From: Oligoflexia bacterium
Lineage (GTDB): Bacteria > Bdellovibrionota > UBA1018
DNA length: 64,000 bases
Direction of reading: 5' to 3'
Assembly (NCBI GenBank): GCA_963758495.1
Contig: CAVWVI010000005.1
Coordinates: forward strand, 100,809 to 164,808
Shown: piece by piece, positions 8,733 to 64,000 of the stretch
Numbering within the stretch: the stretch's first letter is position 1
How the letters are laid out: each line of letters begins with the position of its first letter
Made by a program: the position numbers and the translations under genes
Notes under the pieces: generated by a model
The model's input: the letters and a program-made list of their open reading frames with translations, nothing else
Told to the model about the DNA's origin: nothing
Database searches by the model: none

Positions 8733-9388
8733 AAATGGTTAGCCCGAGGAGCAAAAAAAAGATAAATACCCGAGAAAAACTTTTGGAGTTCTTGTTGAAA
8801 GTAGAGCCGAACTACAAAGAACAATACACTAGGTACCTTGAGCTTCGAAAACGACCTCCTACTATGAGCGGGGATATTACTAACTTTTCTGATTTTGTAG
8901 TAGAACAGTTAACATCTGGAATTTATAAGAACGCCGCAGACGTATTTCAATCTGTTGAATCACTACTCCATGATGAGGCTTCAAACGATGAAGTTAAGGA
9001 TGCGGTGTGTACTTGTTTCTTAGAAAATTTAATCAATTATGCTTCTAATGGAAGAATACCCTACGAAAGTTTTGTCCCACTTCTTGGGCCTAAGTCCGTG
9101 GAGTACTGCAAGGGATGGGACGAATTTACTGGGGTAAAAACTCCAGGATTATGGAAAAATGAAGAGCCTGACTTTAGTCGAAGATTCAATGTGATCAGTG
9201 ATGCTGAAGCTATGTCCATTATTAAAGCAATCAAAAATCATGAGTACAGCACTAAAAGTGAGGAAGAAGAGAAAATTAAACTACTTAGTGCAATTTTCCC
9301 TGGTATATTAAATCTCTTATTTTACGATCCACGTAAATTAACTCCGGATCAAATTTTAAAGGAAGTTAAAAAAAATATTCCAAAATAA
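8729..9388 (+). CDS. Putative two-domain immunity protein (helical CFLENL domain + colicin/pyocin Im-like C-terminus)
   Basis: Overlaps the preceding immunity gene; C-terminus GILNLLFYDPRKLTPDQILKEV resembles the colicin E immunity DLIYY..SPE.IV motif. Confidence 0.55.
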   Translation: MKMVSPRSKKKINTREKLLEFLLKVEPNYKEQYTRYLELRKRPPTMSGDITNFSDFVVEQLTSGIYKNAADVFQSVESLLHDEASNDEVKDAVCTCFLENLINYASNGRIPYESFVPLLGPKSVEYCKGWDEFTGVKTPGLWKNEEPDFSRRFNVISDAEAMSIIKAIKNHEYSTKSEEEEKIKLLSAIFPGILNLLFYDPRKLTPDQILKEVKKNIPK

Positions 9389-45287: not shown

Positions 45288-45522
45288 GAGAGCAGATGAT
45301 TCAAGTCACCAAGCTAGTAAACTAGCTCAAGAAATTGGGGAGGGTCGGAGGCCATCCTAATTCTAAGAAAACCAGCCACAAAGATTGTTCCATAATTTCT
45401 GAAATGTTATTTGGATAATTGTAGAAGCTGGTCTACTATTTTGCCAATACAGATCTGATCGAAAGCTTGATTGGCTATTTCCAAAGATCTTAATTGAATC
45501 TACCCATTATCTCGCAGATTTT

Positions 45523-46475
45523 GTGGGGGGTGCTTATAAAATTACCCGTGAAGAAGTTCTTTCAGGGGAAATTCTAAACGCCGATGAAACCCCTCATAAA
45601 ATGCTGGAGGGAGATCCGAAGAAGAACTGGGGGCTCTGGGGATTTTTAAGTATGGATCGAGGAGTCTACTTTGAAATCAGAGATACTCGTGCTGGAGAAG
45701 TTGCTTCTGCCGTATTAGTTGATTCTATCTGCAAGTATCTCATGAGTGATGCCTATAGCGGCTATGGGAAAGCTCTCAGAGAGGCAAACGAAATCCGTAA
45801 AAAGAAGGGTCTGCTACCCATCCAGTGTCTTTATTGCAATGCCCATTCGATTCGTAAATTTAAGGAGGCGAGAGAAGTTTTAAAACAACAAGACCTAGAG
45901 GACCCTGAATGTGAGTGGTTTGTAGCTCAGTACAAAATAATTTATGATCTTAATGAAGAGTCCAAAAATCTCCATCCTGAGGGGGTGATGGACCTCCGCA
46001 GGAAAATGCTCCCGATCTTTGAGGAGATGAAAAAGCGAGCAGGACAAATTCAAAATAGCTACTCTTCAAAGAGTAAGATGGGAGGGGCAATCTCATACCT
46101 TCTAGATTATTATGATGAATTAACTTTATTCACCACTCAATGGGATCTCCCCATAGACAACAATATTCTTGAGCGTCAATTAAGAAATCCAGTTGTTGGA
46201 AGAAAAACGTGGCTGGGCACACACTCTAAGCGTGGCGCACAAACTGCGGCAGTACTATTCACTCTTGTCGAAAGCTGTAAAATGATCGGAGTAAATCCCA
46301 GAGAATATTTTAAGGTCCTCGTTGAAGATCTCCACCAGGGTAAAGGTCCCTTCTCCCCTTACCAATTCAAGACGCGTCAATCTCAAGCTAAAGCAGCTTA
46401 AATCAGCCCCTTTTTAAAATTTCTATTATAAAAAATCCATTTTTTACTTCCATGTGTGCGCTGCCGACGATCTAC
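45523..46475 (+). mobile_element. IS66-family TnpC, 5'-truncated, with probable right end near 46475
   Basis: ADETP, SDAYSGY, CNAH..RKF, IDNN..ER..R, ESCK..GVNP..Y; N-terminal part and tnpA/B missing. Confidence 0.85.
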
Positions 46476-46880
46476 GAAAGAAAGCACGGGACGACCTGCC
46501 AAAAGCCACTCATTGTTTTTTTAGAAAACGAGGTCAGCACTCTCAAGCCTTTGCCAGCCTTATGCTACGGACGCGAGGAGGTGGCCTATCCAACAGTTAG
46601 GAAGGATGGATTTGTTCGCTTCGCCAACAAATATTACGCAGTGGCCGATGAGCACATAGGGAAAGACGTCGTGGTGATTGCCTCACCCACTCAGGTCTCC
46701 ATTTATGATCGCGGGAGACTATTGGAACTCTACACTCGAATGACAGGGAAAGAATCTACCCATGCAATCAAAGACCACCTCAAAAATGCGCAATTTCAGA
46801 GATGGGAGCACCCCGATTTCAAGTTAGGGATCACCTGAATTTCATCGTAGGGATCACCCCTCGGAGCGAAGCGACGATTG

Positions 46881-47645
46881 TTACTGCGTCTCTTTAAGTT
46901 GATCAAGTTTTTTTGCTTTTATTCGTCTATAACTCTCGCCAGTAATTTTTATCTGAACAGCCATCCCCTCAATTCGGTCAATGATTGCTTCTGAGAGAAC
47001 TGGATCTGGAAGAACCTCAGCCCAGTGTTCCAGGGGTAACTGAGTAGTGACAAGAGTGGATTTCCCATAGGATCTCTCTTCTAAGATCTCTCTCAAGTCT
47101 TCAGCCTCCAATGGATTAAATTTTCTAAGTCCAAAATCGTCAATAATGAGCAAGTCGGGCTTTGTGAGCTTTTCTTTGAATTTGAGATAGCTATGGGTAC
47201 TTCTCGCAAGGATTTGTTGCTCTAGGAATGTGCTTGCCGACAGGAAGATCACCGTTTTTCCCAACTGACATGCTCTGAGTCCAATCGCTTGGGATAGATA
47301 TGTTTTACCCACGCCAGTTTGCCCGATGAGGAGCAGTGGTCGGCCATCTTCGAGCCATTTCATAGAATGTAGTTCTTTTACCTGCGTTTTCGTAATACTT
47401 CTTTTGGCTGTGAAGTCAAAGTCTTCGAAGGATGCGGATCGCTTCAACTTGGAATTCTTGATTCGGCTCTCTATTTTCTTTTTGTTCCGATGGTCTGACT
47501 CTGCTTGAAGTAAGACATCTAAAAACTCTAAGTAACTCCACCCATCCTGAGTGCCATCTGTTAGGGTTTTCTCGAGTGTGTCTGCAATTCCATTTAACCT
47601 GAGCTCAGACAATAGTTGTCTGATTTGAGTTGGACTCATAATCAT
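46881..47645 (-). CDS. istB: IS21 helper ATPase (element B)
   Basis: GQTGVGKT, LLIIDDFG, AIIDRI, GESYR. Confidence 0.93.
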   Translation of the reverse strand: MIMSPTQIRQLLSELRLNGIADTLEKTLTDGTQDGWSYLEFLDVLLQAESDHRNKKKIESRIKNSKLKRSASFEDFDFTAKRSITKTQVKELHSMKWLEDGRPLLLIGQTGVGKTYLSQAIGLRACQLGKTVIFLSASTFLEQQILARSTHSYLKFKEKLTKPDLLIIDDFGLRKFNPLEAEDLREILEERSYGKSTLVTTQLPLEHWAEVLPDPVLSEAIIDRIEGMAVQIKITGESYRRIKAKKLDQLKETQ

Positions 47646-47676
47646 TATTCTCCTTATTTTATTGATTGCGGCAATA

Positions 47677-49188
47677 TTAGGTTGCTACCTCAGACTTCGC
47701 ATTTGCCTGGCGAAGCATGGGGTTTCCAGGCATTCTCTGGATATTAAAATCCTGAGCCTGAGAAAATTGGTGTTTCTTAAGACCATTGAGACATTCTCGG
47801 AAGTAGGTCACTCGGATTTTTTCAAAGCGTCTCATCTGCTGAATGGCATTTATAATTCGAGGTTCTGCCAATGCCCTTCCGGAGCTTTTGATCTCCTCCT
47901 GAGCAACCCTCAGAAGTCCCTGCACTCTTCTAATATTCCCAAGTGCATTTTCATTAAATAAGTCATCCACTAAAGACCTTAGATCTGAGTGAATAAATCT
48001 TGCTTGTGATAATAGATTCTGTGGCGTAGCTTCACGATATGCTTGTGAATTAGGAGGTAAATGATCATTTTGAATCACTCTTGAGGCATGTCTTCGGTGT
48101 CTGGCGTGGATGGCTAGTCTTTGATTTTCATAAAAAATCTCAACCTGATTCTGAGTTAACTTAACTCGTACCTCTTTTCCCCGATAAAGGTATGGCACTG
48201 AGTAAAATACTTGATCCACAGAAATGGTGGAATCAGGGTGGACTCTTGCTTTTGTCCATTCAATGGATTCAAATGGAGAATCAGGGAGAGCCTTCAGAGC
48301 CTTCTTTTCAAGAAGCTGCCAGCGCTCCAATCGAGAAGTTTTAAATCGTGTATGACTTCTTTCATTGATCTGCTTCACCACTTCAGAAAGTGCTCTGTTA
48401 ATTTCATCAAGAGAGAAGAACGTGTGTCGTCTATAGTTCCACCTGAATAGTCTCATGATCAATTTCACAGCTCCTTCGACGATAGGCTTGTCCTTTGGGC
48501 GTCGGGGCCTTGCTGGAACAATTGCTGTTCCGTAATGAGTTGCCAATTCAGTATAAGCTGGATTCAGATCTGGATCATATCGGTGGGCTTTAATTACACC
48601 GTTCTTAAGGCAATCACAGACTGTAACGGCTGGGACACCCTGGAAGTGAGTGTACATTTTTTGATGGGCCAATAGCCAGTTTCGACTCTTTTCATCTTCA
48701 GAGGCCCAGGCAAACAAATACTGACTGAAAGCCAGTGCCCCGATAAAAATATGCGCATAATGAATCTCACCTTGAGAATTGATCCATTCAATCTTATCTC
48801 CGGCATAGTCCACCTCACATTGACTTCCGGGAGCGAAGTCCCTTAAGGTCACTGTTGCTTTGAGTAGGTGGGGAAACTTACGCTGCAGAGTCTTCCAGAA
48901 ATTCGAATAACTCGTGACTGGGCTTGCCTTCTCCTCCCATATTCTTAGGAGTTCAAATCCTAGGGAAATTTCTTTAGCTATCTCTATCCAGTCTACAAGT
49001 TCAATCCAAAGTGGGCTTTTAGCTGGACTCGCTAATTCTTCATTAGGTTGATCCATTTGGGTTCTAAGATCTGCAACTAGTGTCCTCCGACACTTCAGAG
49101 CTCGCGCTATAAACTTGTTTGATTGTCCCTCTCTAATGAGTCTTTTAATATCCTCTACACGCGCCACAGTTAATCCTTTCCGGGCCAT
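47677..49188 (-). CDS. istA: IS21 transposase (element B)
   Basis: EVDYAG, VCDCLK, PKDKPIVEGAV, FYSVP. Confidence 0.93.
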   Translation of the reverse strand: MARKGLTVARVEDIKRLIREGQSNKFIARALKCRRTLVADLRTQMDQPNEELASPAKSPLWIELVDWIEIAKEISLGFELLRIWEEKASPVTSYSNFWKTLQRKFPHLLKATVTLRDFAPGSQCEVDYAGDKIEWINSQGEIHYAHIFIGALAFSQYLFAWASEDEKSRNWLLAHQKMYTHFQGVPAVTVCDCLKNGVIKAHRYDPDLNPAYTELATHYGTAIVPARPRRPKDKPIVEGAVKLIMRLFRWNYRRHTFFSLDEINRALSEVVKQINERSHTRFKTSRLERWQLLEKKALKALPDSPFESIEWTKARVHPDSTISVDQVFYSVPYLYRGKEVRVKLTQNQVEIFYENQRLAIHARHRRHASRVIQNDHLPPNSQAYREATPQNLLSQARFIHSDLRSLVDDLFNENALGNIRRVQGLLRVAQEEIKSSGRALAEPRIINAIQQMRRFEKIRVTYFRECLNGLKKHQFSQAQDFNIQRMPGNPMLRQANAKSEVAT

Positions 49189-49753
49189 CAGTTCTCTCCT
49201 TTTTAATTGAAGAGGACTATACACCCGCCTGTTTTGGCGCTCCGAGGGGTGATCCCAATAGTGAAATCAGGGTGATCCCTACGATGAAATTGAGGTGATC
49301 CCTAACTTGAAATCGGGGTGATCCCTATAATGAAATTTTGCAAAAAGTCATGGCAAAAGCTTGAAGAGCAGAATAGAGGGCTGCTCTCACTAGCCAAAAA
49401 AATAGGGCAAAATACCGAAAAATTTGTTCGCGCAGCTCTCAGTCGTGGTGAGGGATTTGTCGATACTCGGGTCGTCTGGGGACTTCTATCGCTTGATAAA
49501 ACTTATACGAAAGAAGCAATTGATCAGGCCGCAGGTATAGCCCTTGAAATGAACACCTTATCTTCGCGCCTAGTAGAGCGTCTGATTAAACTGACACTGC
49601 AGAAATCAAAAATTAAGGAAAGCCAAAACCCACCGCAACATCGGAGGGAAGTAGCTACCGCAAAGTTCATTCGCCCTATGAGTGTTTATACTGAACAACT
49701 CAAGAGCGGCATGAAATCAACCAGCACCTAAACTCAAGAAAGGGTAAATAAAA

Positions 49754-50515
49754 ATGGATATCGAAACTATACGTTCACAACTTAAGAGTCTCAAGCTAGG
49801 CATCGCCGCAACAGAAATTGACACCGTACTGGCCAACCAAAAGAAGGCCGTGTCGTTGGGATGGCTGGGAGAACTCCTAGAGAGAGAGCTGGATGCTAGA
49901 AAAGAAAATGCTCTCAATTCCAGGATAAAAGCAGCAAAATTCCCAGAAGCTACAACTATTGATGGATTCGATTTTGCTTTTAATCCCGAGATTGATGAGA
50001 CAGCGATCCGCCGTCTTGCAACTCTAGGGTTCATCCAGCAAAACCGAATCGCTCTTTTCTTGGGAAACGCTGGAACCGGGAAAACCCATCTAGCTATCGC
50101 TATCGGGATACTCGCGGCACGGACAGGGCATCGGGTTTACTGTAGCTCAGCTAAGCGACTCCAGGCCCAGATCATCGAGGCAAAAATGAAAAATTCCCTA
50201 GGCGATCTATTCAAAAAAATTCTCTCCTCAAAACTCTGGATCATCGATGATTGGGGCGTGGTCCATCATCCGAGAGAAGTTGCTGAGGAGATCTTTGATT
50301 TAATGGATCGCCGTAAGCACACCTCGGCCATGATTCTCACAAGTAATCGCGACGTTGAAGAGTGGCCTCAGGTCTTTGACGACCCTGTCGTCTCGAATAT
50401 CACGATCGATCGAATCTTCGATCGAGCTGAAACAGTGATCTTCAAGGGGGAAAGCTACAGGCTGAAAGGAAAAATACAAATCAAGGATGTTGACCTCGAA
50501 CCTACGAGGCATTAA
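49754..50515 (+). CDS. istB: IS21 helper ATPase (element A)
   Basis: GNAGTGKT, WIIDDWG, TIDRI, GESYR. Confidence 0.93.
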   Translation: MDIETIRSQLKSLKLGIAATEIDTVLANQKKAVSLGWLGELLERELDARKENALNSRIKAAKFPEATTIDGFDFAFNPEIDETAIRRLATLGFIQQNRIALFLGNAGTGKTHLAIAIGILAARTGHRVYCSSAKRLQAQIIEAKMKNSLGDLFKKILSSKLWIIDDWGVVHHPREVAEEIFDLMDRRKHTSAMILTSNRDVEEWPQVFDDPVVSNITIDRIFDRAETVIFKGESYRLKGKIQIKDVDLEPTRH

Positions 50516-50872
50516 AAGAAATGCTGAACCGGGGGGTCCAGATTGCTGGGACGAAGAGGGGTTCAATTACCTGGGACGGGACAGTTAGAGTAAAAGCCGC
50601 CTAAGATGCTTGACTTAAACCTAAAAAAAGACTGAGATAAATCGCGAATTTTGATATTTTTAAATTTTCCACAATAACTATTTCCTTAAAAAGCTAGGCT
50701 CGCAATTTTAGCAAGCGATGTAAATTATGCAGTAATTATTTAAAAAATCAATGTAAAAAGTCATCTGAATTAAGTTTAATGAAAATCCTTCGTACTGATG
50801 GCAATAAATTCCCAAAAATGCCTTACTACATTAGTTCTCGGAGAGCCACAGCAGGTCTACTCACGACCAATA

Positions 50873-51208
50873 TTAGCTGGCTTTCTTGTGCTGCTCTTGC
50901 TTAGACGTGAGGAGTCTACTTGCGGCTTTTCGCACGCGTATTGCCTGCTTTTCATACTGGCTCTTGCCATTTGGAAACAACAAAGACTCCGGTGAAATGC
51001 CCAGTGCAGCTCCAATGAGCGTTGCGCGCTTTACTCCGATTTCAAGCTTGTTATTTTCTATGGCACTTAAATTAGACTCTGGGATTCCAGTTAGCCGTGA
51101 TAACTCTTTCAGAGTTATACTAAAGTTATTGCGAAACGCCTTAATCGTACTTCCTGTAGTGCTATCTGTTGGGAGAAAATCCATTAAATCTTTTAACTTT
51201 TTCTCCAT
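50873..51208 (-). CDS. XRE-HTH antitoxin (HigA-like)
   Basis: TLKELSRLTGIPESNLSAIENNK HTH, downstream of a RelE-like toxin. Confidence 0.8.
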   Translation of the reverse strand: MEKKLKDLMDFLPTDSTTGSTIKAFRNNFSITLKELSRLTGIPESNLSAIENNKLEIGVKRATLIGAALGISPESLLFPNGKSQYEKQAIRVRKAASRLLTSKQEQHKKAS

Positions 51209-51211
51209 ATG

Positions 51212-51526
51212 TTACTCCTTTTTCTTATAATTATGGTCTTTAGTAATTCGTACTATAATAACAGTCACAACTTGATCCTCAATTCGATAGATAATCCGAC
51301 CTTTGTAACTAAAGCTGGATGATCTATAGCCTTCCCATTCTCCATATAAAGGATGATCGGCCCAAATGTCCGGTCTTTTTAATAAAGCTTCCGGTCCACC
51401 TTCTATAACAATTCTTCGCCACTCCTTGATTACTTCAAGGTCATCGCGGGTCAGGATTTTTCTCTGAAAGACCTCCGCAGCCTTATCTTCAACTTTTACT
51501 TGCCAGAGGCCTGAACCAAGTTTCAT
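51212..51526 (-). CDS. RelE/YafQ/HigB-family type II toxin
   Basis: DHPLYGEWEGYRS, RIIYRI; toxin-first order. Confidence 0.82.
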   Translation of the reverse strand: MKLGSGLWQVKVEDKAAEVFQRKILTRDDLEVIKEWRRIVIEGGPEALLKRPDIWADHPLYGEWEGYRSSSFSYKGRIIYRIEDQVVTVIIVRITKDHNYKKKE

Positions 51527-51580
51527 CTTACTAAAAAGAGTAACTTATTATTATTAGTAAGTCAAGGTTTATAGGGTATT

Positions 51581-51751
51581 ATGAGACTTCGGTATCAGTT
51601 ACTAAATCCATTTGATTTATCAAAAGGTTTAGAAAAGAAGCTGGAAGAGTTCTTTTATTTAGTTAAGAGAAAGAAGCTCTGGCAAGTTGCCTAAGGATTA
51701 TAAGTCATTATTCCGGTGAGCTTTTCCCATAAGTCAATACGCACGCGAACA
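51581..51751 (+). mobile_element. 3' remnant of a transposase related to 51841-53031, plus right end
   Basis: MRLRYQLLNPFDLSKGLEKKLEEFF.. matches SLNPFKLAEGMELKLSQFY; followed by cggtgagcttttcccataagtcaatacg..aca. Confidence 0.6.
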
Positions 51752-51840
51752 AAAACATTCAATAATATTAGTTATATACCTTCGTATCAGACAATAAATA
51801 GCTGTCACCAAGGAGCGAAGCGTTAAATAGAGTAAGTTTA

Positions 51841-53031
51841 TCATGCTACCTCCTTGGCTGTTTTAATCTGTCTAATCCGTTCATAGAATTGGGAGAGTTT
51901 GAGCTCCATACCTTCAGCTAACTTAAATGGATTAAGTGATTCCTTTTCTGCTTTTAGAAGGCTCTTTTGTTCGTCTGAGAGGTATTTGCAAGTCATAAGT
52001 CTATCATAGGGGGTCTGAGGTGCTTCGAACTTTTTCATGATTTTAGATCCTATTCGGATTTTTTCTTTTAGTTTTTGAGAAGGAAGAAAAAAATTATGAA
52101 GAGGGTTCCAATACTCGGTATAAATTTCATTCATAAGCCCAACTAAGGTCACATCTTCCAATCGATCATAACCAAAGAGCTGACGAACATGAGTGTAATT
52201 TTTCTGCTCTACGTATGCGTTGTCATTCTTTCTATAGGGCCGAGAACGGGTAAAGGTAATTGACTTTCGTCCATAATCCGAGCTCATATAGTTTACAATT
52301 GGATTATTTAGGAATTCACTCCCAGAGTCCGTATTTACTGCTAATAATTCAAAGGGAAGCCTCTTCCTAATATCAATAAATGCATCGCGGACATCTAAGC
52401 CTTTTTTTGAAGGAAGTGCGCGAGTTTCTGTCCAAGTGGAAGCTATGTCTGTCAGTGTTAAAGTACTCAGAAATGGCCCAGCTGCTGACGATCCGCAGTG
52501 TGAAACTGTATCAGCTTGGGTAAATCCTGGGCGATCTACTTTGTAATCTAGGGTATTGATTGGAACGCTGTTTCTAATTGCTCGAATTCCAGAAGTGGTA
52601 GTGGAAAGGCCACGATTAACTTTATCCTTGAGGCGTAGAATAGCGATCATACGCTCTAAGGTCCCTTTGCTCATGAGTTCAAGCTTCATTCTTAACTCTA
52701 TTGTAAAATCAGGATGCTCGTAACTTGGGAGCCAGTCCTTAAGTGCTGCTTTCATCCGTTCAGCAGAAATGCGCTCCATTCGAATCCATAGGGTCTTAAT
52801 ATGGGGTAGGAATATCTGGGGGTCATACTCTAGCGGCCTGCCTCGTCCATCGGAACCCAGTTTTGCCTCTCTTTCTAAGGATTTACGATTTAAGTAGCGA
52901 ATAATTGTTTTGCGGTCTTTTCCAGTAATGAGGATCGCGTCGCTCAGTAGCTGAGTTTTTCTACCTTTGCCTGCATCCCAGTATGTTGTTTTTAAAGCGA
53001 TGATGTATTCTAAGTAAGCCTGGTGACTCAT
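51841..53031 (-). mobile_element. DDE (integrase-core) transposase, ISNCY/IS481-like
   Basis: QADTVSHCG, NTDSGSEF, RSRPYRKNDNAYVEQKN; RBS before ATG 53031; repeated end motifs at 53088-53180. Confidence 0.88.
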
Positions 53032-53249
53032 TTGAATCGTCCTCCTTGACGATAGAAATTTAAGTAGTTCAGATGACTTAGATTCTATCACGGTGACGAT
53101 TTTTGAAGTTGCCAGGCACTTCCGCCAAATCCCTACTTCAACCTTCAGTGACGGTATTTTTGCGGCGATTCGGATAACCATAAGATACTAAAAAAACGTC
53201 GAAGCGAGTTTGCTAATTAATTAACAATAGTGCATTAATGTGATCCACT

Positions 53250-55688
53250 ATGAACCGTAATGAATTTATTCTATTTTCAGCTCTATTTCTTGCAGGATCT
53301 CCTTCCCTGGGTCTGGCTCAAGATCATTTAAGTGACCTACAAAAGGCCTTAAAATCTCAAGATAGAGAGCTTGTACAGGCTTTCCTACAATCATTAAGCC
53401 TTGAAGATCCAGAAACCCAGGCAATGCTCTCCAGAGCAGATGAAGACGGAAGATCTCCTCTCATTTCGGCTATTCGAGAAGGGCTGGGTTTTCCAATAAT
53501 CCGCCGCCTTTTGAGCTTGGGTGCAGACGTGAATCAAGCTGATCGAGAAGGTAAAACCGCTTTAATTTATGCGGCAGAGAAAGGACATATGGGACTCGTG
53601 CAGGAGCTTCTCAATAAAGGCGCTAAGGTCGATCATGTAGATAGCTTTGGGTGGACGGCTTTAGGACAGGCACTAGTAGCAACAGCCAATGAACAAGATC
53701 AGTTTAAAGTGCTACAGCTTTTTCTAAAATCAGGTGCCAGTCTGAATAATTCTTTTCCTTCTGATTCTCAGGCGTATTCGAATACTTCGATTCATAACCA
53801 GCTTCAGGGGCGAACGATCCTAACATGGGCAATTGAATCTAAATCAATGCGATTGACAAGTTTAATTCTTCGTTCTCTAAAGAAGCAACAAGCCTGGGTG
53901 AACCAAAGGGATGGTCGCGGCAGAACACCCTTAATCCAGGCGGTGGAATCAGGCCAGTTTCAACTTGTAGAAGATCTTGTAAGTGACGGAGCCGATGCAA
54001 CGATTCAAGACAATCTCGGTTGGACAGCGTTGAGCAAGCTTTTGGCGCAAGCCCGGAACCCTAAAGCATCTCAGCAGAGCTTTGGGCAAGAACAGATGAA
54101 ATGGATGAAGGTATTTTTAGACCAAGGTAAGAAAGCCGATCAAATCTTTCCAGGAACAGAAGCAGCCTACTTAAATAAAAAGGAATTCCAGAAATTTCAA
54201 GGCCGTTCAATACTTGCATGGGCCGTAGAGAATGATCGCGCAGATGTGATTGCACTTTTGCTTGAGCAGGGTACAGACCTAGGCCCCTTGGAGCCACTCC
54301 TGATGTCCTCGATTGAACGGGGTAATCTAGAAATGTTGGCACTCGTGGTGGGCCAGGGTGTTGATCTTTGTCCGAAGCAGCCGTTAAATTTCAGCGGTCA
54401 CACACCTTTGACCTTGGCAGCAGAAAAGGGAAAAGTTGAGGTTGTGAAGTTCATATTGAATTCTCTCTCGCACGCAGAAGATGCTTCGATATCTCTGAAC
54501 GAGTGCGATCTAAATGGGATTGGTAAAGATGGAAGGACTGCATTGGGTTGGGCCGGAGCGAAGGCAAATTTAAATGTGGCTCAATTGATTATTCAAAAGG
54601 GAGAAGAGCAATTTTTTGGAGTATCGGAGTTAAGAAATATGCTGACAGCCGCGGGGACACCACAACTCAAAGGTAAATGGATCGAGTACTTCTCTGTTAT
54701 CCAGTTATCAACTCGCTTAACAGATCTCTTGAATATAAAATCAGAGAGCGTTATCGCGTTTGAAGGTGAACAATTAGAAAATCAAAACCCTGGATTTCTT
54801 CCCAGCGTAGGTGCTCTCAAATCCTTGATGAATCAAAAAGCCAAGGAGCTTTACTACCAGGAACAAGAGCAAGAAATTCATAACCAGTCTCAAAGTGCGA
54901 TGAAGATAGTTGAACCGAGAACAGATGAAGTGGGTGCCTCTAGTTCAAGCAATCTAAGCAAAATCTCACCTCATTCAGAAATAGCTTCGTGTATGGTTTG
55001 TTTGGATACGATCATGGTTGGAGATGAGCAGCCCTTTGGACCAGCCGGATGTTCGTGTAATATGATTTGTTCGAATTCTGAATGTACTGAATATTTCTGT
55101 AGCACGATAGTCAATCGTGATGGCGAAGACGTGAGTCGTTGTCCAGGCTGTAAAAGTCCTGTTTATTCAAAGTATTTAGTAGAGCATGGTGTAAGTGAAG
55201 AAGATGCAAAAAAGGTCCGCAATCGATGCGTCGATATTCTAAATTCACAGCAATTAGGTTGGAGATTTTGTCCGACAACGGGTTGTGCTGGAGGACGGGT
55301 AGTCCAACCTCACGAAAAATCTGCGTATTACTCTTGTATTCTGTGTGGCCATGAAGGTTGCATTAAGTGTGGAAGTGAGCACAAGGGTGATTGTGCGAAT
55401 TATGAAAAAGAAATGAAAGAATTTGAAAACCTCTTACGTTTAGGAGCAATGGCTCCCCCGAAGAATAGACCTGCCGACCCAAATCACCCAGATTATATGA
55501 AGGGCCGTTTTCGCCCTTGTTATCACTGTGGAGTGATTACAGAGCGAGATGGAGGATGCTCACATATAACCTGTAAGAGATGCCGTGCTGAATGGGAATG
55601 GAACTGGGGGCCTTATGAAAGAGGTAAATTTACTATGACAGACCAGCTTCCAATGAAGTTTAAGCCGCTTAAGGCGCCACACTGGTAG
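53250..55688 (+). CDS. Secreted ankyrin-repeat + RBR (RING1-IBR-RING2) E3 ubiquitin ligase-like protein
   Basis: Signal peptide; multiple ankyrin repeats (GRSPL, GKTAL, GRTPL, GHTPL); RING1 CMVC..CSC..C..C..CPGC; IBR WRFCPTTGC..CILC..CIKC..H..C; RING2 CYHC..RDGGCSHITCKRC. Confidence 0.85.
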   Translation: MNRNEFILFSALFLAGSPSLGLAQDHLSDLQKALKSQDRELVQAFLQSLSLEDPETQAMLSRADEDGRSPLISAIREGLGFPIIRRLLSLGADVNQADREGKTALIYAAEKGHMGLVQELLNKGAKVDHVDSFGWTALGQALVATANEQDQFKVLQLFLKSGASLNNSFPSDSQAYSNTSIHNQLQGRTILTWAIESKSMRLTSLILRSLKKQQAWVNQRDGRGRTPLIQAVESGQFQLVEDLVSDGADATIQDNLGWTALSKLLAQARNPKASQQSFGQEQMKWMKVFLDQGKKADQIFPGTEAAYLNKKEFQKFQGRSILAWAVENDRADVIALLLEQGTDLGPLEPLLMSSIERGNLEMLALVVGQGVDLCPKQPLNFSGHTPLTLAAEKGKVEVVKFILNSLSHAEDASISLNECDLNGIGKDGRTALGWAGAKANLNVAQLIIQKGEEQFFGVSELRNMLTAAGTPQLKGKWIEYFSVIQLSTRLTDLLNIKSESVIAFEGEQLENQNPGFLPSVGALKSLMNQKAKELYYQEQEQEIHNQSQSAMKIVEPRTDEVGASSSSNLSKISPHSEIASCMVCLDTIMVGDEQPFGPAGCSCNMICSNSECTEYFCSTIVNRDGEDVSRCPGCKSPVYSKYLVEHGVSEEDAKKVRNRCVDILNSQQLGWRFCPTTGCAGGRVVQPHEKSAYYSCILCGHEGCIKCGSEHKGDCANYEKEMKEFENLLRLGAMAPPKNRPADPNHPDYMKGRFRPCYHCGVITERDGGCSHITCKRCRAEWEWNWGPYERGKFTMTDQLPMKFKPLKAPHW

Positions 55689-55724: not shown

Positions 55725-56966
55725 ATGAAATTAATTAGGAATAAAAAAGTGAATAAAATTCGATTGTTTTTAGTGATTATAGCAGGTTTGGCTCTTCAAT
55801 CCCTACCGGCAATAGCGGTAGAAAAGGTGTATTTCAAAACCCTAGATGGGGAAGCATTTGCCTGCGACAAGGCTAATTTAGAATTCCATATTGATCCAGA
55901 GGGAAGGCTGTCTGAAATTTGTAATTTTTCGTCAGAAATGGAATCTGGAGATGGGGAATCAGAGAGTACGGCGCTTGAATTAGACGTGAATGGAAAGCTA
56001 TTTAAAAAGTATATTTTAGATATCATAAGACACGGAAAAGTTTCTTTTAAAAATAACGCCGATGCAGAAAATACTTTGACCATTTGCGAAAATCTCGGTT
56101 TAACATTAGCGGAAGAGCACGTTTGTAAATTTCTCAAGAGAAGGCCGCGCAAAAAGAACCAAGAATCTGACGTTCAAATGGCAGGCAGCAATCGTCATTC
56201 TACTCTGGCTAGCCTGGAATGCCCAGAAGGTTACGTAATGGTTCCTGGTAATGAATCTTATAATACTCCGGGTCAGGGTGAAGACTTCTGCGTGATGAAG
56301 TACGCAGCCTCTAACGGTGAAAACGGCAAAGCTGTTTCACGGCAAGGCGCAGCCCCGTGGGTAAATATTAATCAGGCTAATGCAGCGGCAGCCTGTTCAG
56401 CGAATGGAGAAGGCTACCATCTAATCACAAATGCTGAATGGATGACAATTGCCCGAGACATTGAAGCAAATGAAGTAAACTGGAATAATGGAGCAGGACC
56501 TGTTGGAACTGGAACATTGTCTAGAGGAAATAGCAATTCTAATGCAGCACTAATCCCAGGTACAGATGAGAGTTCAGTAGCTACTGATTGGACCCATAGA
56601 AGAACTCATATCTTGAGTACGGGAGAGATGATTTGGGATATGGCCGGAAATGTATGGCAATGGGTAGCAGATAATTTAACAACAAGAAGAGATAATTGGA
56701 AAGAATTTACTGATGTAGGTACGTTTCCATTACAGAGCGACATTAGGTCACTGTATGGACCTAGTGGTTTGTACGACTCAAATCACGGAACGGGAAAGAT
56801 TTACATGTACGACGCAGGAGCCGTGCTTCGCGGGGGCGCCTGGAGCCACGGTACTGGCGCCGGCGTCTTTGCTGCGACTCTGGACAACTCCGCTACGAGC
56901 ACGTACCCGGAACCTCGGATTTCGTTGCGCCGTGTCGGCTTCGGGTGCTCGCTAGCCATGGGTTAA
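55725..56966 (+). CDS. Secreted BTB/POZ + C-type lectin (FGE-sulfatase fold) protein, DGR-type target 1 (+1 indel in variable region)
   Basis: Signal peptide; LDVNGKLFKKYILDIIRHG..CENLGL (KCTD-type BTB); FCVMKY, LITNAEW, DMAGNVWQW, RGGAW; GFRC shifted to another frame. Confidence 0.8.
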   Translation: MKLIRNKKVNKIRLFLVIIAGLALQSLPAIAVEKVYFKTLDGEAFACDKANLEFHIDPEGRLSEICNFSSEMESGDGESESTALELDVNGKLFKKYILDIIRHGKVSFKNNADAENTLTICENLGLTLAEEHVCKFLKRRPRKKNQESDVQMAGSNRHSTLASLECPEGYVMVPGNESYNTPGQGEDFCVMKYAASNGENGKAVSRQGAAPWVNINQANAAAACSANGEGYHLITNAEWMTIARDIEANEVNWNNGAGPVGTGTLSRGNSNSNAALIPGTDESSVATDWTHRRTHILSTGEMIWDMAGNVWQWVADNLTTRRDNWKEFTDVGTFPLQSDIRSLYGPSGLYDSNHGTGKIYMYDAGAVLRGGAWSHGTGAGVFAATLDNSATSTYPEPRISLRRVGFGCSLAMG

Positions 56967-57005: not shown

Positions 57006-57022
57006 CCTGCCCGGAGGGCAGG
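57006..57022 (+). other. GC-rich hairpin with GGA loop, 3' of VR1
   Basis: cctgccc-gga-gggcagg. Confidence 0.75.
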
Positions 57023-57163
57023 CGGACAAAAAAAATTACAAAATAGCTGGAAATTTCTGGAAATAGCTGGAAATGGGCTCGTAAAACGAATGTGTCAGAT
57101 TTCGAAATTTTAGCGATACGAATTGAAATTAAAAATGAAAGAAATTGGAAAAGTAGGTTTGTT

Positions 57164-58384
57164 ATGAAGTCTTTGAGAACTAGAGCAGTTAAGTTAATCA
57201 TGTTGAGTGGGTTTATTGTAAGCGGATTGTCTGCTTTTTCTTCGTCACTGCTGGCAGTGGAAAAAGTTTATTTTAGTACTTCGGACGGCGAGAAGTTTTG
57301 GTGTGATCGAGATAATTTAGAATTCCACATGGACCCAAATGGGAAATTATCCGAACTATGCAATTTCATGCTTGAGGATGGAGAACATGCTGGCCAGTCT
57401 GAAGCGACATCCCATGAATTAGATTTCAACGGCAGGTTATTCAAAGAATATATTTTAGATCTATTAAGAAGGGGTGAAGTATCATTCAAAGATAAGGCGG
57501 ATGCCGAGAACACTTTGAGGATCTGTGAAAACCTAGGTCTTCCGGCGGCGGAGGAATATATTTGTAAGGTTCTAAAGAGAAAACCTCGCAGAGAATTGAA
57601 ATCCCCTGATTCCAAAGACACCCGTGTCGCAAACGCACGATTACAAAATATCGATTGTCCAGAGGGCTATGTGATGGTTCCAGGCAATGAATCCTATAAC
57701 ACCCCGGGGCAAGGTGAAGACTTCTGCGTGATGAAGTACGCGGCCTCAAATTCAGGAAACAGAACGGCTGTATCAATACAAGGTGCAGCCCCATGGGTAA
57801 ATATTAATCGGGCTGATGCCGCGACTGCATGTTTAGCGAATGGCGAAGGCTACCATTTAATCACAAATGCTGAGTGGATGACGATTGCCCGAGACATTGA
57901 AGCAAATGAAGTAAACTGGAATAATGGAGCAGGACCTGTTGGAACTGGAACATTGTCTAGAGGAAATAGCAATTCTAATGCGGCACTAGCGCCAGGTACA
58001 GATGAGAGTTCAGTAGCTACTAATTGGATTAATAGAAGAACTCATACCTTGAGTACGGGAGAGATGATTTGGGACATGGCCGGAAATGTATGGCAATGGG
58101 TATCTGATTCTCCCACTCTAGGTGGACAGTCTCAATGGCAAGAAATGTCAATTTTAGCCGATGCGAACCATCGATTACAGTTTGGACCTAGTGGAGGTTT
58201 TACTTCAGCTCAGGGTGTTGGCAAAATCGTCCCCGGTTCCGCAGGAGCCGTGCTTCGCGGGGGCGCCTGGAGCAGCGGTTCTGCTGGCGCCGGCGTCTTT
58301 GCTGCGTATCTGAGCCACTCCGCTACGTACACGAGCCGGTACTTCGGATTTCGTTGCGCCGTGTCGGCTTCGGGTGCTCGCTAG
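57164..58384 (+). CDS. Secreted BTB/POZ + C-type lectin protein, DGR-type target 2 (start probably 57164)
   Basis: Paralog of 55725; LDFNGRLFKEYILDLLRRG..CENLGL; ends RGGAW..FGFRCAV. Confidence 0.85.
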   Translation: MKSLRTRAVKLIMLSGFIVSGLSAFSSSLLAVEKVYFSTSDGEKFWCDRDNLEFHMDPNGKLSELCNFMLEDGEHAGQSEATSHELDFNGRLFKEYILDLLRRGEVSFKDKADAENTLRICENLGLPAAEEYICKVLKRKPRRELKSPDSKDTRVANARLQNIDCPEGYVMVPGNESYNTPGQGEDFCVMKYAASNSGNRTAVSIQGAAPWVNINRADAATACLANGEGYHLITNAEWMTIARDIEANEVNWNNGAGPVGTGTLSRGNSNSNAALAPGTDESSVATNWINRRTHTLSTGEMIWDMAGNVWQWVSDSPTLGGQSQWQEMSILADANHRLQFGPSGGFTSAQGVGKIVPGSAGAVLRGGAWSSGSAGAGVFAAYLSHSATYTSRYFGFRCAVSASGAR

Positions 58385-58436: not shown

Positions 58437-58451
58437 CTGCCCGAAGGGCAG
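58437..58451 (+). other. GC-rich hairpin with GAA loop, 3' of VR2
   Basis: ctgccc-gaa-gggcag. Confidence 0.72.
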
Positions 58452-60243: not shown

Positions 60244-60327
60244 TGTTTCCCCCTGGTTGAATTTGAGCGGTTGTAGAGTTTGAAAAAATCTGAAACTGTC
60301 TCCGATTCTATATTTTTCAGAATCCGT

Positions 60328-61044
60328 TTATTTTTTCAGACGGTTCGAAGCTTCATCCTGTAGCGCCTCCCCAGTTCCTTGAGACAGAGCAGGTTGGTCG
60401 CCATGATGAGAATTCGCAGGACTACCAGGCGAGAGCAAGGTGTTCCAGATCACGGTTGCCTGGGGAACTCGGAGCAATGCCTCCCGGCTCTTTTCGAGCT
60501 TCGATTTAAGCTCAATCAGGGTTTGGTCAATCCTGAGACCTAGAGTCAGACGCCGCGATCCAAAGAGCGAGTCTCGGAGGGCCGTTTTGGTCATGATTTC
60601 GCTTTCCAATTCGGCCACTGATTTCGAGTGAAAGGCGATCTGTGACCGCTGGGAGAAGGCGGTTTGGACGACCGAACTCGAAATAGCCCAGGCGCTGTAC
60701 GAGTAGATCAGTAGGATCATGAGCTTGTAGAGGGCTCCCGTCCCTGTCGTTCGAGCTTTCATCAGGGCGAAGGCAAAGACGGCCCCCTCCAAGATGATTG
60801 CCTTGATATAGGCAGCTGCTTGGGTGCCATCTACAGCGGCGTAGAACCGGGCTGTCTCCGTTACCAAGTATCCCGTCATGGTGGCGACGAAAATCTGAAG
60901 TAGGAGAGTCCCCCAGGGGATTTGAAAAAGCTTCGACTCTCGATGATCCGAATTTTCAGGCTCTTTTCTCTTCGTTTTGAAAATCGGAATGACGTTCAGA
61001 ATCGAATTCCGTTTAGGTTTGTACTTGGCTTTAACTTTCTTCAA
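60328..61044 (-). CDS. Hypothetical membrane protein (three TM helices + coiled coil), possibly frameshifted near its C-terminus
   Basis: Hydrophobic segments; downstream of the rep-like gene. Confidence 0.55.
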   Translation of the reverse strand: MKKVKAKYKPKRNSILNVIPIFKTKRKEPENSDHRESKLFQIPWGTLLLQIFVATMTGYLVTETARFYAAVDGTQAAAYIKAIILEGAVFAFALMKARTTGTGALYKLMILLIYSYSAWAISSSVVQTAFSQRSQIAFHSKSVAELESEIMTKTALRDSLFGSRRLTLGLRIDQTLIELKSKLEKSREALLRVPQATVIWNTLLSPGSPANSHHGDQPALSQGTGEALQDEASNRLKK

Positions 61045-61104
61045 AATTATCGGCCCGGTTTTTCTGATAATGCTCTTTGTTATAATTTCGTTTTTCTTGG
61101 TGGG

Positions 61105-62715
61105 TCATGCTTTCCTCGTGTTTTTGGAAGTGATCTTGCGAAAAGCATGAGAGCGCAACACGTTGCCTCCAGAGTCAAAAGAGCGTTGCTTTAAAGCCCT
61201 CCCTGCTCCATTTTCCAGAAAATGGGAAATCACGAAGCTTTTGACGACTGGACTGTCCCATCCCATTTTCTTCCAGGAACTTCGGGTAAAGGGCAACCAG
61301 ACTTTGGATGACCTTTTCAGCAAAGCCACTCAACTCCGTTTGGACATGGGTAGATACTTAAGAGCGCCGAGTGGCGGATTCCATTTTGGTGGCCCATTCG
61401 TCCTGTTCCTGCTTTTCTCTCTCCTGCGCTTCTCTTTGTTTTTTCTCGTACTCTTGCTTGGCGGCCTCCTTTTCGGCTCTTTGGGCTTGGGCCTCTTTCA
61501 GGGCTTGTTCTCTTGAGCCAATTCTGGTACCGATTGAGATTCATCTCCCAATGGCCGTTGATCCAGACCATGGGGCTGTGGATTTTTCCTTCCTCGCCAG
61601 CCTTCCCGTTTCCATGGGCTTCGAGAAAGCTAACGACTGTTCCGCAAAGGTCGAAGAAGGGCTTTCCATGAGTGATAAAGAGTTCCTGAAAAATCTCTCT
61701 CTCTTTTTTGAGTTTCCAAATTTTCCGGATTTTTCGAAAGTCTCCCAGCGTGCACTCATGTCGTCAGGAAAGTCGGTTGCGTAAGAGAGAGATTCTTTCT
61801 TAGATTCTTGAATAAGATTCTTAGGCGGCTCGATTTCTGAATGATTTCCGACGCTTGATGCGCTGCTTGATGGGTTCGTTTGCCCCAGGTCAACCTGGGG
61901 TGATTTACCCTTTTTGTCACAGGGCGCATTACCCTGGGGTATGATTACCCTGGGTTTGTTTAACGTGGGTTCGATTACCCTTTCCGTGACTTCAAAATAG
62001 CTGTGATTCAGCGCCCAGAAATTCACTGTTTTGTGCGAGATTTTTTGAAGAACTGCTTTATTCAGGAGCTTCCTGAGAGCTGCGCGAAGATTGGAGCCGT
62101 CCATTCCTGTTTCGAGTTCAAACTCCTCGATGGTGATGGGGGCGAACATTTTTGGACTGACCTGAGCAATGGTCCGATCGTAGACGGTAAGGACGAGGGC
62201 GATGTCTACGAGCTTCAATCTGTGCTTGGTAGGGGCTCGTAAGACTCTCGACAGGCCATGCGCGAAGCGGCCCCAGCCTTCGGCGAGGTGTTGGGTTACC
62301 AGATTCGTTTGGGCATCGTGAGTCAGTAGACCCCCTTGGGTCACAGCTCCCTCGATCATCTTCTCTCTGCGCCGCTTGTGACGGCCAGCTAAGTGATCGT
62401 TCAAGTCGAAGCCTTGAGATTTTTCTGGGCCATTGGTCGGCTCTGCATGGGTAGAATCACTCTGAGTGGCATTACTCTGAGTATGTTTACCCTGGGTTAG
62501 ATCTACGTGGGGAACTTCAACCTGGGTACAATTACCCTGAGTTAAGTTACCCTGAGTTTGTTTACTCCAGAGCCCGCTGCTTTCGATCGGTGCCGAAGTC
62601 CCTGCCGGATCTTGGGGTGGGAGGGAGGAATGAAGGTCTGAGTCTTCGGAAGGATCAGGGGTTTGCCGGGTTGAATATTGCCAATCGCATTTCGTAGAAT
62701 AGATTTTCCGCTCAT
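61105..62715 (-). CDS. Putative replication initiator (HTH), apparently broken by several frameshifts
   Basis: ATG 62715 coupled to the parA stop with RBS AAGGAGG; central YDRT..ITIEEFELETGMDGSNLRAALRKL HTH; frames shift at a GA microsatellite near 61700 and elsewhere. Confidence 0.5.
62457..62557. repeat. 15-bp-period repeats (TTACCCTGRGT consensus), iteron-like; further copies at 61885-61981
   Basis: Units starting at 62457, 62472, 62487, 62517, 62532, 62547. Confidence 0.7.
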
Positions 62716-63593
62716 GATTGACCTCCTTGATTCGAATTGAGTCGCGTTGTGATTTCTCCAGCCAGCTTGAGATAATCTTCTGCACCCGAACTCATTGGAG
62801 CGTGATGGAAGATTGTGCGACCGAGGGCAGGGGCTTCCCGGAGTTTGACGGAGCGCCTGATCTTTGTCTGAAAGACTTGGTCACCGAAGCTTTCCTGGAG
62901 ACTGTCGAACACATCGGAAGTGATCAGGGTGTTATCGCAGAGGGTGAGGAGAAAGCCGAGAACTGCCACAGTTAGATTTGTTCCCGCTTGAATTTCCCCG
63001 ATCTCAGCGAGAAGAGATTTGATTCCCTGCAAAGCAAAAACGCCAGAATCTACAGGCACGATGACCCAGTCAGCTGCATTCAAAACGGAATTCATCAAAG
63101 GGCCGAAAGTAGGCGGTGAATCCAGCAAAACATAGGCATAGCGATCCCTGAGTTTTCTCAGACGTTGCGCCAGTCTCAACTCGCTGTTGGTCATGCCGAC
63201 CATTTCGCGTTCGAGTTGGGACAGTAGAGGAGTGGCAGGAATCAAGTCGACTGATTGACCTTTGTAAATGGCTCCGTCATCTGCGAGAGAGCGGTCCTTG
63301 ATCAGATCAGAAATGGAGACGTGTACCGTTTCCAGCTTGATCCCTGACGCCTGGGTGGCGTTGCCTTGTGGGTCGAAGTCGACGATGAGGATTCGATTTT
63401 CTGTTTGAGTGTGTTTTGGATTTTGTAAGGTGAGAGCGTGGGCCAGATTAACCGTGGTTGTGGTTTTTCCGACACCGCCTTTTTGATTTGCGATTGCAAT
63501 GATTGGGTGGGTGCTGCTTTGCGGTTTCATTTTTTTCCCTATGGCCTTTGCTTGTTCGGTAACGCCATTTGTTGCTCTATTTGTGTTTGACAA
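62712..63593 (-). CDS. parA: ParA/Soj-family ATPase
   Basis: NQKGGVGKTTT, DFDPQGNAT, LDSPP, IRRSVKLREAP. Confidence 0.93.
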   Translation of the reverse strand: MSNTNRATNGVTEQAKAIGKKMKPQSSTHPIIAIANQKGGVGKTTTTVNLAHALTLQNPKHTQTENRILIVDFDPQGNATQASGIKLETVHVSISDLIKDRSLADDGAIYKGQSVDLIPATPLLSQLEREMVGMTNSELRLAQRLRKLRDRYAYVLLDSPPTFGPLMNSVLNAADWVIVPVDSGVFALQGIKSLLAEIGEIQAGTNLTVAVLGFLLTLCDNTLITSDVFDSLQESFGDQVFQTKIRRSVKLREAPALGRTIFHHAPMSSGAEDYLKLAGEITTRLNSNQGGQS

Positions 63594-63720
63594 TTGGTCC
63601 GTATTCCGCGAGCATAAGGGAGTACGGACCAGGGGATTTCGGCCAAGAAAGCCCCGGTGGTTGGCGGATATCAGTCGTAAAGTTTGCAGCTCACAGACTG
63701 ATTGCCGCGAAAGATTCTGA

Positions 63721-63749
63721 AAAAGCTCACCCTCAAAAAGTGAGCTTTT
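63721..63749. other. 10-bp inverted repeat upstream of parA
   Basis: aaaagctcac-cctcaaaaa-gtgagctttt; terminator or protein-binding site. Confidence 0.5.
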
Positions 63750-64000
63750 TCTATTTATGGGGGTTTGAAGTTGCTGGACATAGCTCGGCCCTCCTTTCCG
63801 AATCGTGTCTCAATGTGTGAGGAACACGATTTTAGAAGAGCCGCATCGTAGGAAAAAAATAGGAAGAAAATAGGAAATTCCCGAAATCTCGCGACTGATT
63901 GGGAAATGTCGAAGCTACGAAACTCTCGTAACTGCTTGAAACCTAACCCCCAGAAACGACAAAAGCTTTTTCGATTTCTCGAAAAAGCTTTGTAAATTTT

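Follow-up and report, generated by a model that had tools for sequence, protein, structure and literature searches.

An ankyrin-RBR protein of the Bdellovibrionota, putatively a host-directed ubiquitin ligase, encoded beside BTB-lectin genes

The DNA window analysed here comprises 64,000 nucleotides of a Bdellovibrionota genome (G000; contig C5, positions 100809-164808) and ends where this contig ends. A single unbroken open reading frame (ORF) on its forward strand (53250-55688) encodes an 812-residue protein, P0001, in which ankyrin repeats precede the RING1, IBR and RING2 domains of the RBR ubiquitin ligases. P0001 is almost certainly a real bacterial protein and a homologue of these ligases. 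Beyond this, its sequence suggests, with a probability of about 0.6, that P0001 may serve as an exported, host-directed and active RBR-type ligase (E3) of a bacterium that lives inside, upon or at the cost of a eukaryotic microbe.

Homology to RBR ligases

A preliminary description of this DNA had proposed a full RING1-IBR-RING2 pattern with its catalytic Cys at codon 55557-55559, and both proposals are borne out. In the PDB, all 32 sequences matched by residues 575-812 at E ≤ 1 were RBR ligases, with Parkin as the best match (E 6.9e-6). In the Parkin alignment, C770, H772 and E781 of P0001 fall on the Cys-His-Glu triad, and Cys770 (TGC, 55557-55559) lies within ERDGG-C-S-H-ITCKRC-RAEWEWNWG and aligns to the catalytic Cys. 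The segment RAEWEWNWG stands opposite RLEWCWNCG of Parkin, which places E783 and W786 at two zinc-binding Cys; the earlier claim that WEWNW replaces the last RING2 zinc ligands therefore holds. P0001 stops 25 residues past G787. The gene is intronless, as had been stated. The bacterial signal peptide is a probable one, judged by a hydrophobicity heuristic and by inspection. The ankyrin region is a probable substrate-binding module.

All eight IBR zinc ligands are present in P0001. The Pfam IBR model (PF01485) matched residues 665-713 with E 5.4e-4 and 20.4 bits in the scan of the window, below the 24.3 cut-off, and with 26.2 bits, above it, in the scan of the family genomes, while IBR_2 matched residues 755-786 (E 5.3e-6; 26.9 bits, just short of the cut-off of 27). 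Pfam thus recognises these two regions near its cut-offs, but not RING1, for which no RING model matched at E ≤ 0.1. RING1 contains eight Cys, with C-x-C in place of the C-x-H of RING-HC domains; it was recognised by its Cys pattern and fold, and is presumed to be the domain binding the ubiquitin-conjugating enzyme (E2). As a control, the IBR-type Cys/His pattern was found in 6 of 5025 ORFs of G000, all of them RBR paralogs, and in none from five shuffled copies.

The AlphaFold2 model of the RBR part, built from 76 sequences, reached a pLDDT of 94.1. With Foldseek, the model had 48 PDB matches at E ≤ 0.001; those listed were all RBR ligases or complexes. The VIA comparison aligned the model to RING1-IBR of HOIL-1 and Parkin. 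Language-model features (Atlas) likewise gave an RBR score of 0.95, the nearest clusters (0.92-0.95) being eukaryotic and carrying IBR in eight of the nine rows shown.

Conservation, distribution and phylogeny of the family

P0001 is part of a family known from metagenomes. At E ≤ 0.001, a profile of five RBR domains matched 548 cluster representatives, of which 88 also passed E ≤ 1e-10. The core family was defined as the profile matches down to P0069 together with P0001, P0003 and P0004 (68 proteins); P0002 was excluded as a near-copy, and three fragments without RING2 were dropped, which left 65 core members. C757, C760, C770 and C775 are invariant in these (65/65) and C778 is kept in 64. 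Cys770 is thus fully retained though it is no zinc ligand in the Parkin register. Position 783 is occupied by His (46), Asp (13), Asn (5) or Glu (1), and no core member has a Cys at 783 or 786. The second zinc site is therefore replaced, as the preliminary description had it, but this is a trait of the whole family rather than the one-off decay of a divergent variant. His or Asp at 783, together with a later H-D, could form a rebuilt RING2 zinc site. In 41 of the 62 untruncated core members, the last two residues are His and an aromatic one, and the tail of 40 contains H-[DEG]. By analogy with His510 of HOIL-1, His811 of P0001 (55680-55682) is a candidate base or ligand.

A hydrophobic N-terminus was scored by the heuristic in 37 of the 54 core members of at least 400 residues, in none of the 14 canonical RBRs and in 636 of the 1574 genome ORFs. 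Across IBR-RING2, pN (proportion of nonsynonymous differences) was 0.19-0.39 in all ten paralog pairs and pS (synonymous) 0.62-0.89, with synonymous sites saturated; the ankyrin-RBR (ANK-RBR) copies are under purifying selection. One subgroup, aligned as A4, with ten signal-less and Ala/Arg-rich members (P0080, P0083, P0084, P0089, P0097, P0099, P0101, P0106, P0107 and P0125), has likewise lost the second-site Cys, and its position differs between trees. Furthermore, locus L022 (G209:C176) holds three tandem RBR genes with another, non-ankyrin N-terminal region and no BTB neighbour.

Pfam IBR was found in 11 of 75 genomes of the same taxonomic family (7 of 48 genera), some matches being of the IBR-less type described below, and in none of 14 controls. 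Among 343 sampled genomes of other families, it occurred in one, on a 1,977-base piece: this fragment (L062, G054:C11), from another family of the phylum, carries IBR with a canonical RING2 and is possibly contamination. A search of the whole family with alignment A3 (55/75) was not used as an RBR count, since its model includes ankyrins. Scans with narrow DNA patterns (two loci in genome_contigs, two in metagenome_contigs, none in viral_contigs) miss most of the family and set no bound on it. Among the 30 family matches whose organism was looked up, 3 were named, two as Bdellovibrionia and one as Entamoeba.

In a quick tree of 64 of 144 aligned rows, from which the second-site columns had been removed, a branch parts the 15 ANK-type members linked to Bdellovibrionota from the 14 canonical RBRs. 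This branch is weakly supported (76-88), and with these 14 canonical rows the tree points to no donor.

BTB-lectin neighbour genes and their variable regions

The preliminary description had placed the gene in an operon-like array, which is confirmed by a next gene starting 36 bases downstream on the same strand. This gene 1 and its tandem paralog, gene 2 (Table 1), each encode a signal peptide followed by two domains, one of 115 residues and one of the FGE/C-type-lectin type. The model of the 115-residue domain (pLDDT 70.6) matched the BTB domains of KCTD9, KCTD5 and KCTD17 in Foldseek (KCTD9: E 1.5e-5, TM 0.68/0.79) and superposed on KCTD17 with Z 11.6 and a root-mean-square deviation of 3.1 over 99 residues. 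By sequence, Pfam BTB_2 had no match in any of five genomes, and the BTB alignment, run as a profile against the PDB, named no domain; the Atlas values (0.76-0.78) are a lead only, so that the domain was identified by its fold. The small domain is thus predicted to adopt a BTB fold, a fold that also occurs in BTB proteins which do not bind cullin-3.

This BTB was detected in 3 of 75 family genomes, in ten copies. Runs that follow an ANK-RBR gene directly account for eight of these, with five copies in G000, two in G415 and one in G218, and one further copy is an orphan beside an insertion sequence (IS). The BTB-lectin genes are thus tightly linked to ANK-RBR genes, though several RBR genes lack such a neighbour.

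Both genes have a GC-rich segment at their 3' ends in which differences fall almost wholly on codon positions 1 and 2. Compared with locus L070, the segment of gene 1 has eight changes at positions 1-2 and none at position 3 (body 77 and 89; Fisher p 0.003), and that of gene 2 has 14 and one (body 103 and 111; p 0.0007), while the two genes differ from each other in their variable regions by ten and none. In the gene bodies, position-3 differences are about as frequent as those at positions 1-2 together. The p values of 0.0007-0.003 come from three pairwise comparisons that are not independent. Such a distribution is a signature of adenine-directed mutagenesis by a diversity-generating retroelement (DGR). 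The frame shifts near the 3' end of gene 1, inside its variable region. The hairpin behind gene 1 is either a DGR target hairpin or a terminator. No template repeat (TR) and no DGR-type reverse transcriptase (RT) were found in the G000 assembly, which is 92% complete and in which the island is cut by the contig end; its five RTs resemble group II intron enzymes and show a 24% match to the RT of G218.

In G218, locus L082:1-3235 (G218:C26) carries a complete DGR, with target, bAvd, TR and an RT on the opposite strand. Its target is a RING2-lectin gene, frameshifted in the assembly and of Lcl_C rather than FGE type. Adenines account for 14 of 17 mismatches between TR and variable region there, and for 16 of 24 mismatches between this TR and the end of a G000 RBR-lectin gene, which it resembles. 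A relic at G000 C3:865249-865700 has an ANK-RBR linker abutting the variable-region end of an FGE gene. The linked adaptor genes suggest a retroelement-driven hypermutation of ubiquitin-ligase substrate receptors, for which our literature searches found no prior description.

Table 1. Features of the window in and around the ANK-RBR gene (positions of the window)
Feature	Position	Strand	Basis
ANK-RBR gene P0001, 812 aa	53250..55688	+	ORF calling, Pfam
Probable signal peptide for Sec export, aa 1-23, with basic N-terminus, hydrophobic core and cleavage site G-L-A	53250..53318	+	Inspection and hydrophobicity heuristic
Ankyrin-repeat region, ~aa 67-460	53448..54629	+	Pfam Ank_2, E 1.5e-42
RING1, C581-C634, eight-Cys variant	54990..55151	+	Conserved Cys columns; model aligns to RING1-IBR of HOIL-1/Parkin
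IBR domain, C674-C715, C6HC	55269..55394	+	PF01485; pattern control
RING2/Rcat: first zinc site C757/C760/C775/C778, catalytic Cys770, His772, Glu781; E783/W786 at second-site Cys	55518..55610	+	Parkin alignment, family counts
Family-specific tail in place of RING2 second zinc finger, ends P-H-W	55611..55685	+	Terminal His-aromatic counts
Integrase-core transposase just upstream of the ANK-RBR gene	51841..53181	-	rve E 0.003; IS-rich island at end of contig C5
Adaptor-like gene 1, with signal peptide, BTB domain of KCTD-type fold (55809-56159) and FGE-sulfatase/C-type-lectin domain	55725..56966	+	Pfam FGE; model, Foldseek
Adaptor-like gene 2, tandem paralog: BTB 57251-57601, FGE domain	57092..58384	+	Pfam
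DGR-type variable region of gene 1, 68% GC vs 41% in body	56810..56950	+	Codon-position changes vs L070
DGR-type variable region of gene 2, 67% GC vs 44% in body	58240..58375	+	Codon-position changes vs L070
GC-rich hairpin behind gene 1	57006..57022	+	z -2.7; also behind gene 2
GC-rich hairpin behind gene 2	58437..58451	+	z -2.5

Further ubiquitin-related genes, secretion systems and other genes of the window

The RING and F-box proteins and the ankyrin fusions reported here were read from two sets of 20 and 5 chosen G000 ORFs rather than from a full census. G000 holds at least six RING proteins, six BTB copies, 29 ankyrin-matching ORFs and one F-box-FGE protein, and its RING, F-box and full-length BTB proteins begin with a hydrophobic stretch. 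The F-box protein (C4:466055-467107; signal peptide, F-box, FGE) carries the same lectin module on another cullin adaptor. Four secretins are encoded, one of them in a gsp-like (type II secretion-like) cluster, its genes being recognised by their sequences.

A second RBR build combines signal peptide, coiled coil, RING1, IBR, RING2 and an Lcl_C lectin domain (G000 C4:226948-228537 and C4:41195-42997; G320, L057:2716-4278). Both G000 copies form a separate long branch in the quick tree, and this build is probably a separate acquisition; one relative is automatically annotated as 'IBR domain-containing protein [Bdellovibrionia bacterium]'. In an IBR-less, RBR-like ligase, RING1 is joined to a RING2-like domain with a catalytic-type Cys and an intact second zinc site, mostly with a lectin at the end (G000 C3:187825-189321 and C2:117112-118410; G218, L025, L026 and L083; G087, L063). 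Ankyrins are also fused to an AAA/Clp ATPase (C5:41446-44103), a PI3/4-kinase-like domain (C2:53921-55846), a papain-like domain (C3:1226345-1228054) and a phosphoesterase (C1:22871-24526) in G000.

Elsewhere in the window, a 1918-residue secreted protein with a toxin-like C-terminus (2643-8399) is followed by a small ORF (8729-9388), without a Pfam match; together they resemble a polymorphic toxin-immunity pair. In an ORF at 22169-23377, also without a Pfam match, a signal-like stretch precedes a GGGGFH tandem repeat. Nested IS21/IS66-like transposases, a ParA and a Rep-like ORF occupy 45500-53200 and 60300-64000, with a toxin-antitoxin-like pair at 50873-51526; they make up a mobile island truncated where the contig ends. 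A scan for promoters and terminators was at chance level (13 against 11.8 and 6 against 6.1).

Proposed function and alternative explanations

The export signals and the adjoining hypervariable adaptor genes suggest protein tagging inside a eukaryotic host cell. The signal peptide would route P0001 through Sec, and a type II secretion system would release the protein. In the host cytosol, RING1 would bind host E2-ubiquitin, and Cys770 would accept ubiquitin as a thioester and hand it to a substrate bound through the ankyrins, with E1, E2 and ubiquitin all being drawn from the eukaryote. In RING2, an aromatic core and a conserved tail would take the place of the second zinc finger, and His residues of the tail may provide the base that most members lack at position +2, while P0001 retains the canonical Cys-His-Glu. 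The precedent of HOIL-1 His510 offers a role for the terminal His of the family, though P0001 also keeps His772. The co-encoded BTB-lectin proteins, with a binding site that is hypervariable, would act as adaptors that bring substrates to host cullin-3. The RBR and BTB pair may even cooperate as Ariadne RBRs do with neddylated cullin ligases, which is speculative, the Ariadne-specific parts being absent. That a Bdellovibrionota lineage turned to eukaryotes as hosts or prey secretes a two-gene kit of this kind, an RBR with a rebuilt active site and a DGR-hypermutated BTB adaptor for cullin-3, is rather unlikely in its entirety. If true, the two proteins would form an E3-E3 assembly in the style of ARIH1, with a range of substrates that evolves in an antibody-like manner.

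Several observations weigh against an exported and active ligase. The TM-scores of the whole RBR model were low (0.18-0.37 in Foldseek) and its best VIA Z was 6.8, which may be explained by the variable domain arrangement of RBRs. His772 and Glu781 are kept in 7 and 10 of the 65 core members, respectively, so that the GG-C-x-H motif pointed out in the preliminary description is present in P0001 but atypical of its family. No BTB neighbour accompanies the ANK-RBR genes on contig C1, in G209, G272 and G401 and at L007. The Sec route would pass a zinc protein with 24 Cys through the oxidising periplasm. In G000, no match was obtained for a nucleotide translocase, and therefore no classic mark of intracellular life, nor for a type VI secretion sheath, VirB4 or an injection tail, and therefore no injection machine. 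The searches for E2 and ubiquitin were blank in all 14 controls too, leaving their sensitivity unshown, and G000 is 92% complete. Ligase activity, export route and eukaryotic host of P0001 are thus putative.

P0001 may be host-directed but no ordinary ligase, serving as a decoy or hydrolase of E2-ubiquitin or placing ubiquitin onto hydroxyls (Ser/Thr, sugars, lipids) like HOIL-1 and RNF216. The canonical His is absent in 58 of 65 core members and the C-terminal half of RING2 is rebuilt; HOIL-1, similarly rebuilt and with a C-terminal His, is the top fold match and ubiquitinates maltose according to PMC9834252. We consider such an activity unlikely, as P0001 retains Cys-His-Glu, ankyrins are protein-binding modules, and the top VIA rank of HOIL-1 is due to RING1-IBR, not to the tail.

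Less probable still is a role confined to bacteria, in the periplasm, at the surface or inside bacterial prey, either together with a prokaryotic ubiquitin-like system that escaped detection or as a Cys-rich binding scaffold without ubiquitin chemistry. This would suit the Sec signal, the finding of neither an injection system nor a translocase, and a phylum known to prey on bacteria (PMC8067016). However, the five genomes searched for E2 and ubiquitin gave no match, though the controls were blank too, and RBR, RING, F-box and BTB modules occur together, of which F-box and BTB require host Skp1 or cullins. Pfam IBR is sparse, with 11 of 75 genomes inside the family and 1 of the 343 sampled outside it, which argues against core predation gear, and the unpaired Cys770 is invariant. 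A host-directed ligase remains our preferred reading.

Origin and bacterial residence of the gene

The parallel with eukaryotic ANKIB1 drawn in the preliminary description holds for the order of ankyrins and RBR, but P0001 leaves no room for an Ariadne domain, and ankyrins occur in just 44 of the 75 family members scanned. In quick trees with weak deep support and 14 canonical rows, P0001 also stands apart from P0152, a protein of Entamoeba named 'ankyrin repeat and ibr domain'. A recent transfer of an ANKIB1/Ariadne-type gene, to which this domain order and the presence of the Entamoeba protein among the distant matches might point, is thus very improbable. Besides the missing Ariadne domain, synonymous sites are saturated among the paralogs, the gene uses codons as its genome does, and the tree splits the ANK-RBRs from the canonical RBRs, if weakly. 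Direct descent from ANKIB1 was rejected on architecture, with weak backing from the tree.

G000 measures 3.66 Mb in five contigs, is 92.1% complete and 2.1% contaminated, and contains two bacterial 16S genes. Besides P0001, intact ANK-RBR paralogs lie at C2:78015-80531, C3:745315-747771 and C1:117049-118632. A split, ankyrin-less duplicate with an in-frame stop (C3:741769-742863) is followed by a truncated BTB-FGE gene. The four intact copies and the split one are therefore spread over C1, C2, C3 and C5, and the neighbours of the paralogs are bacterial housekeeping genes, among them trmFO, xerC, prfC, mnmA and era as recognised by sequence. GC content at third codon positions of the ANK-RBR gene is 0.378, compared with a genome mean of 0.366 ± 0.050, consistent with native codon usage.

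An independent contig encodes a full ANK+RBR protein (P0002) with 93% identity in the RBR part, and L070 carries the same RBR end and the next gene. The RBR-to-BTB junction was found again in L070, G218 and G415. One soil-metagenome contig covers 55350-55748 with nine differences, the seven listed all lying outside codons 770-786; the bacterium is uncultured, and matching public contigs come from soil metagenomes only. Relatives sit in Bdellovibrionales and Bdellovibrionia records, and the first of these proteins (Bdellovibrionales) is also present in G218, of the same family as G000. Although the gene lies in an IS-rich island at a contig end and the public contigs compared cover a minor part of the stretch, none spanning the whole of it, an assembly chimera, or eukaryotic or viral DNA in the bin, can be dismissed in view of the paralogs on four contigs amid housekeeping genes, the low contamination, the native codons, the independent contigs with their full ORF and repeated junction, and viral_contigs that gave no relative by a narrow DNA pattern.

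Significance in the light of the literature

In section 10 of an October 2026 review (PMC13720258), bacterial counterparts of HECT, RBR, RCR and RZ ligases are described as not yet identified. The accessible text of PMC4327156 lists only F-box, U-box and deubiquitinases for bacteria. That of PMC4209131 has no IBR, describes F-box and BTB in bacteria as almost confined to amoeba-associated lineages and calls Chlamydiae the sole BTB-bearing bacteria. No bacterial RBR is mentioned in the accessible parts of PMC12591485, PMC11354881, PMC7159879 and PMC13728172. Our literature searches, which covered few subscription papers and no supplements, gave no bacterial RBR and nothing on a host of this lineage. 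As far as we found, a bacterial IBR domain is thus visible in databases, yet undescribed in the literature.

The P0001 family offers a directly testable first bacterial case of an RBR, with a domain of 236 residues. As a natural RBR without the canonical second zinc finger and usually without the catalytic His, it tests the minimal RBR mechanism, and it points to an association with eukaryotes in a phylum known for eating bacteria.

Comparison with known systems

The best sequence match is Parkin (PDB 4i1f and others), with IBR and RING2 aligned and the triad and first RING2 zinc site in register. Unlike Parkin, P0001 lacks the ubiquitin-like (Ubl) and RING0 domains, carries a signal peptide and ankyrins, has an eight-Cys RING1 and has its second RING2 zinc site replaced. 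ANKIB1 contains ankyrins followed by an RBR module, an order it has in common with P0001. In contrast to ANKIB1 and the Ariadne proteins, P0001 has no Ariadne domain and no recognised acidic or UBA-like N-terminus, and does not group with canonical RBRs. ARIH1 and ARIH2 work with neddylated cullin ligases, as reported in PMC3817463, which parallels the RBR and BTB gene pair of G000.

The top fold match, HOIL-1 (PDB 8eaz, 7yui), resembles the P0001 family in a rebuilt C-terminal half of RING2, a replaceable canonical His and a very C-terminal His. According to PMC9834252, it lacks the usual His and uses His510 at its very C-terminus, active RBRs vary in the C-terminal half of RING2, and the triad His is not universal. 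However, the HOIL-1 tail is a Zn2/Cys6 cluster, while that of P0001 has no Cys, and the identity is 16%.

The RBRs of giant viruses (Fadolivirus, Klosneuvirus) are, like P0001, intronless and found outside eukaryotes, with a fold match of E 4.4e-9. In contrast, their identity to P0001 is at most 24%, and P0001 has a signal peptide and a bacterial context. The viral_contigs collection gave no relative by the narrow pattern, which misses most of the family.

Bacterial E3 effectors (SopA/NleL, NEL, SidC, LubX, SnRING) and chlamydial F-box and BTB proteins are ligases or cullin adaptors of bacteria without ubiquitin, as presented in PMC13720258 and PMC4209131. The catalytic-Cys classes among them are unrelated to RBRs; these effectors are injected by type III or IV systems and come from a different phylum, whereas the P0001 family carries Sec signals. 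Finally, in DGR targets of the TvpA type the variable region is C-terminal and lies within an FGE or Lcl_C domain (PMC7159879), a feature shared by the neighbour genes of P0001. Unlike in those targets, the variable domain here is part of a fusion protein with BTB, F-box, RING or RBR modules.

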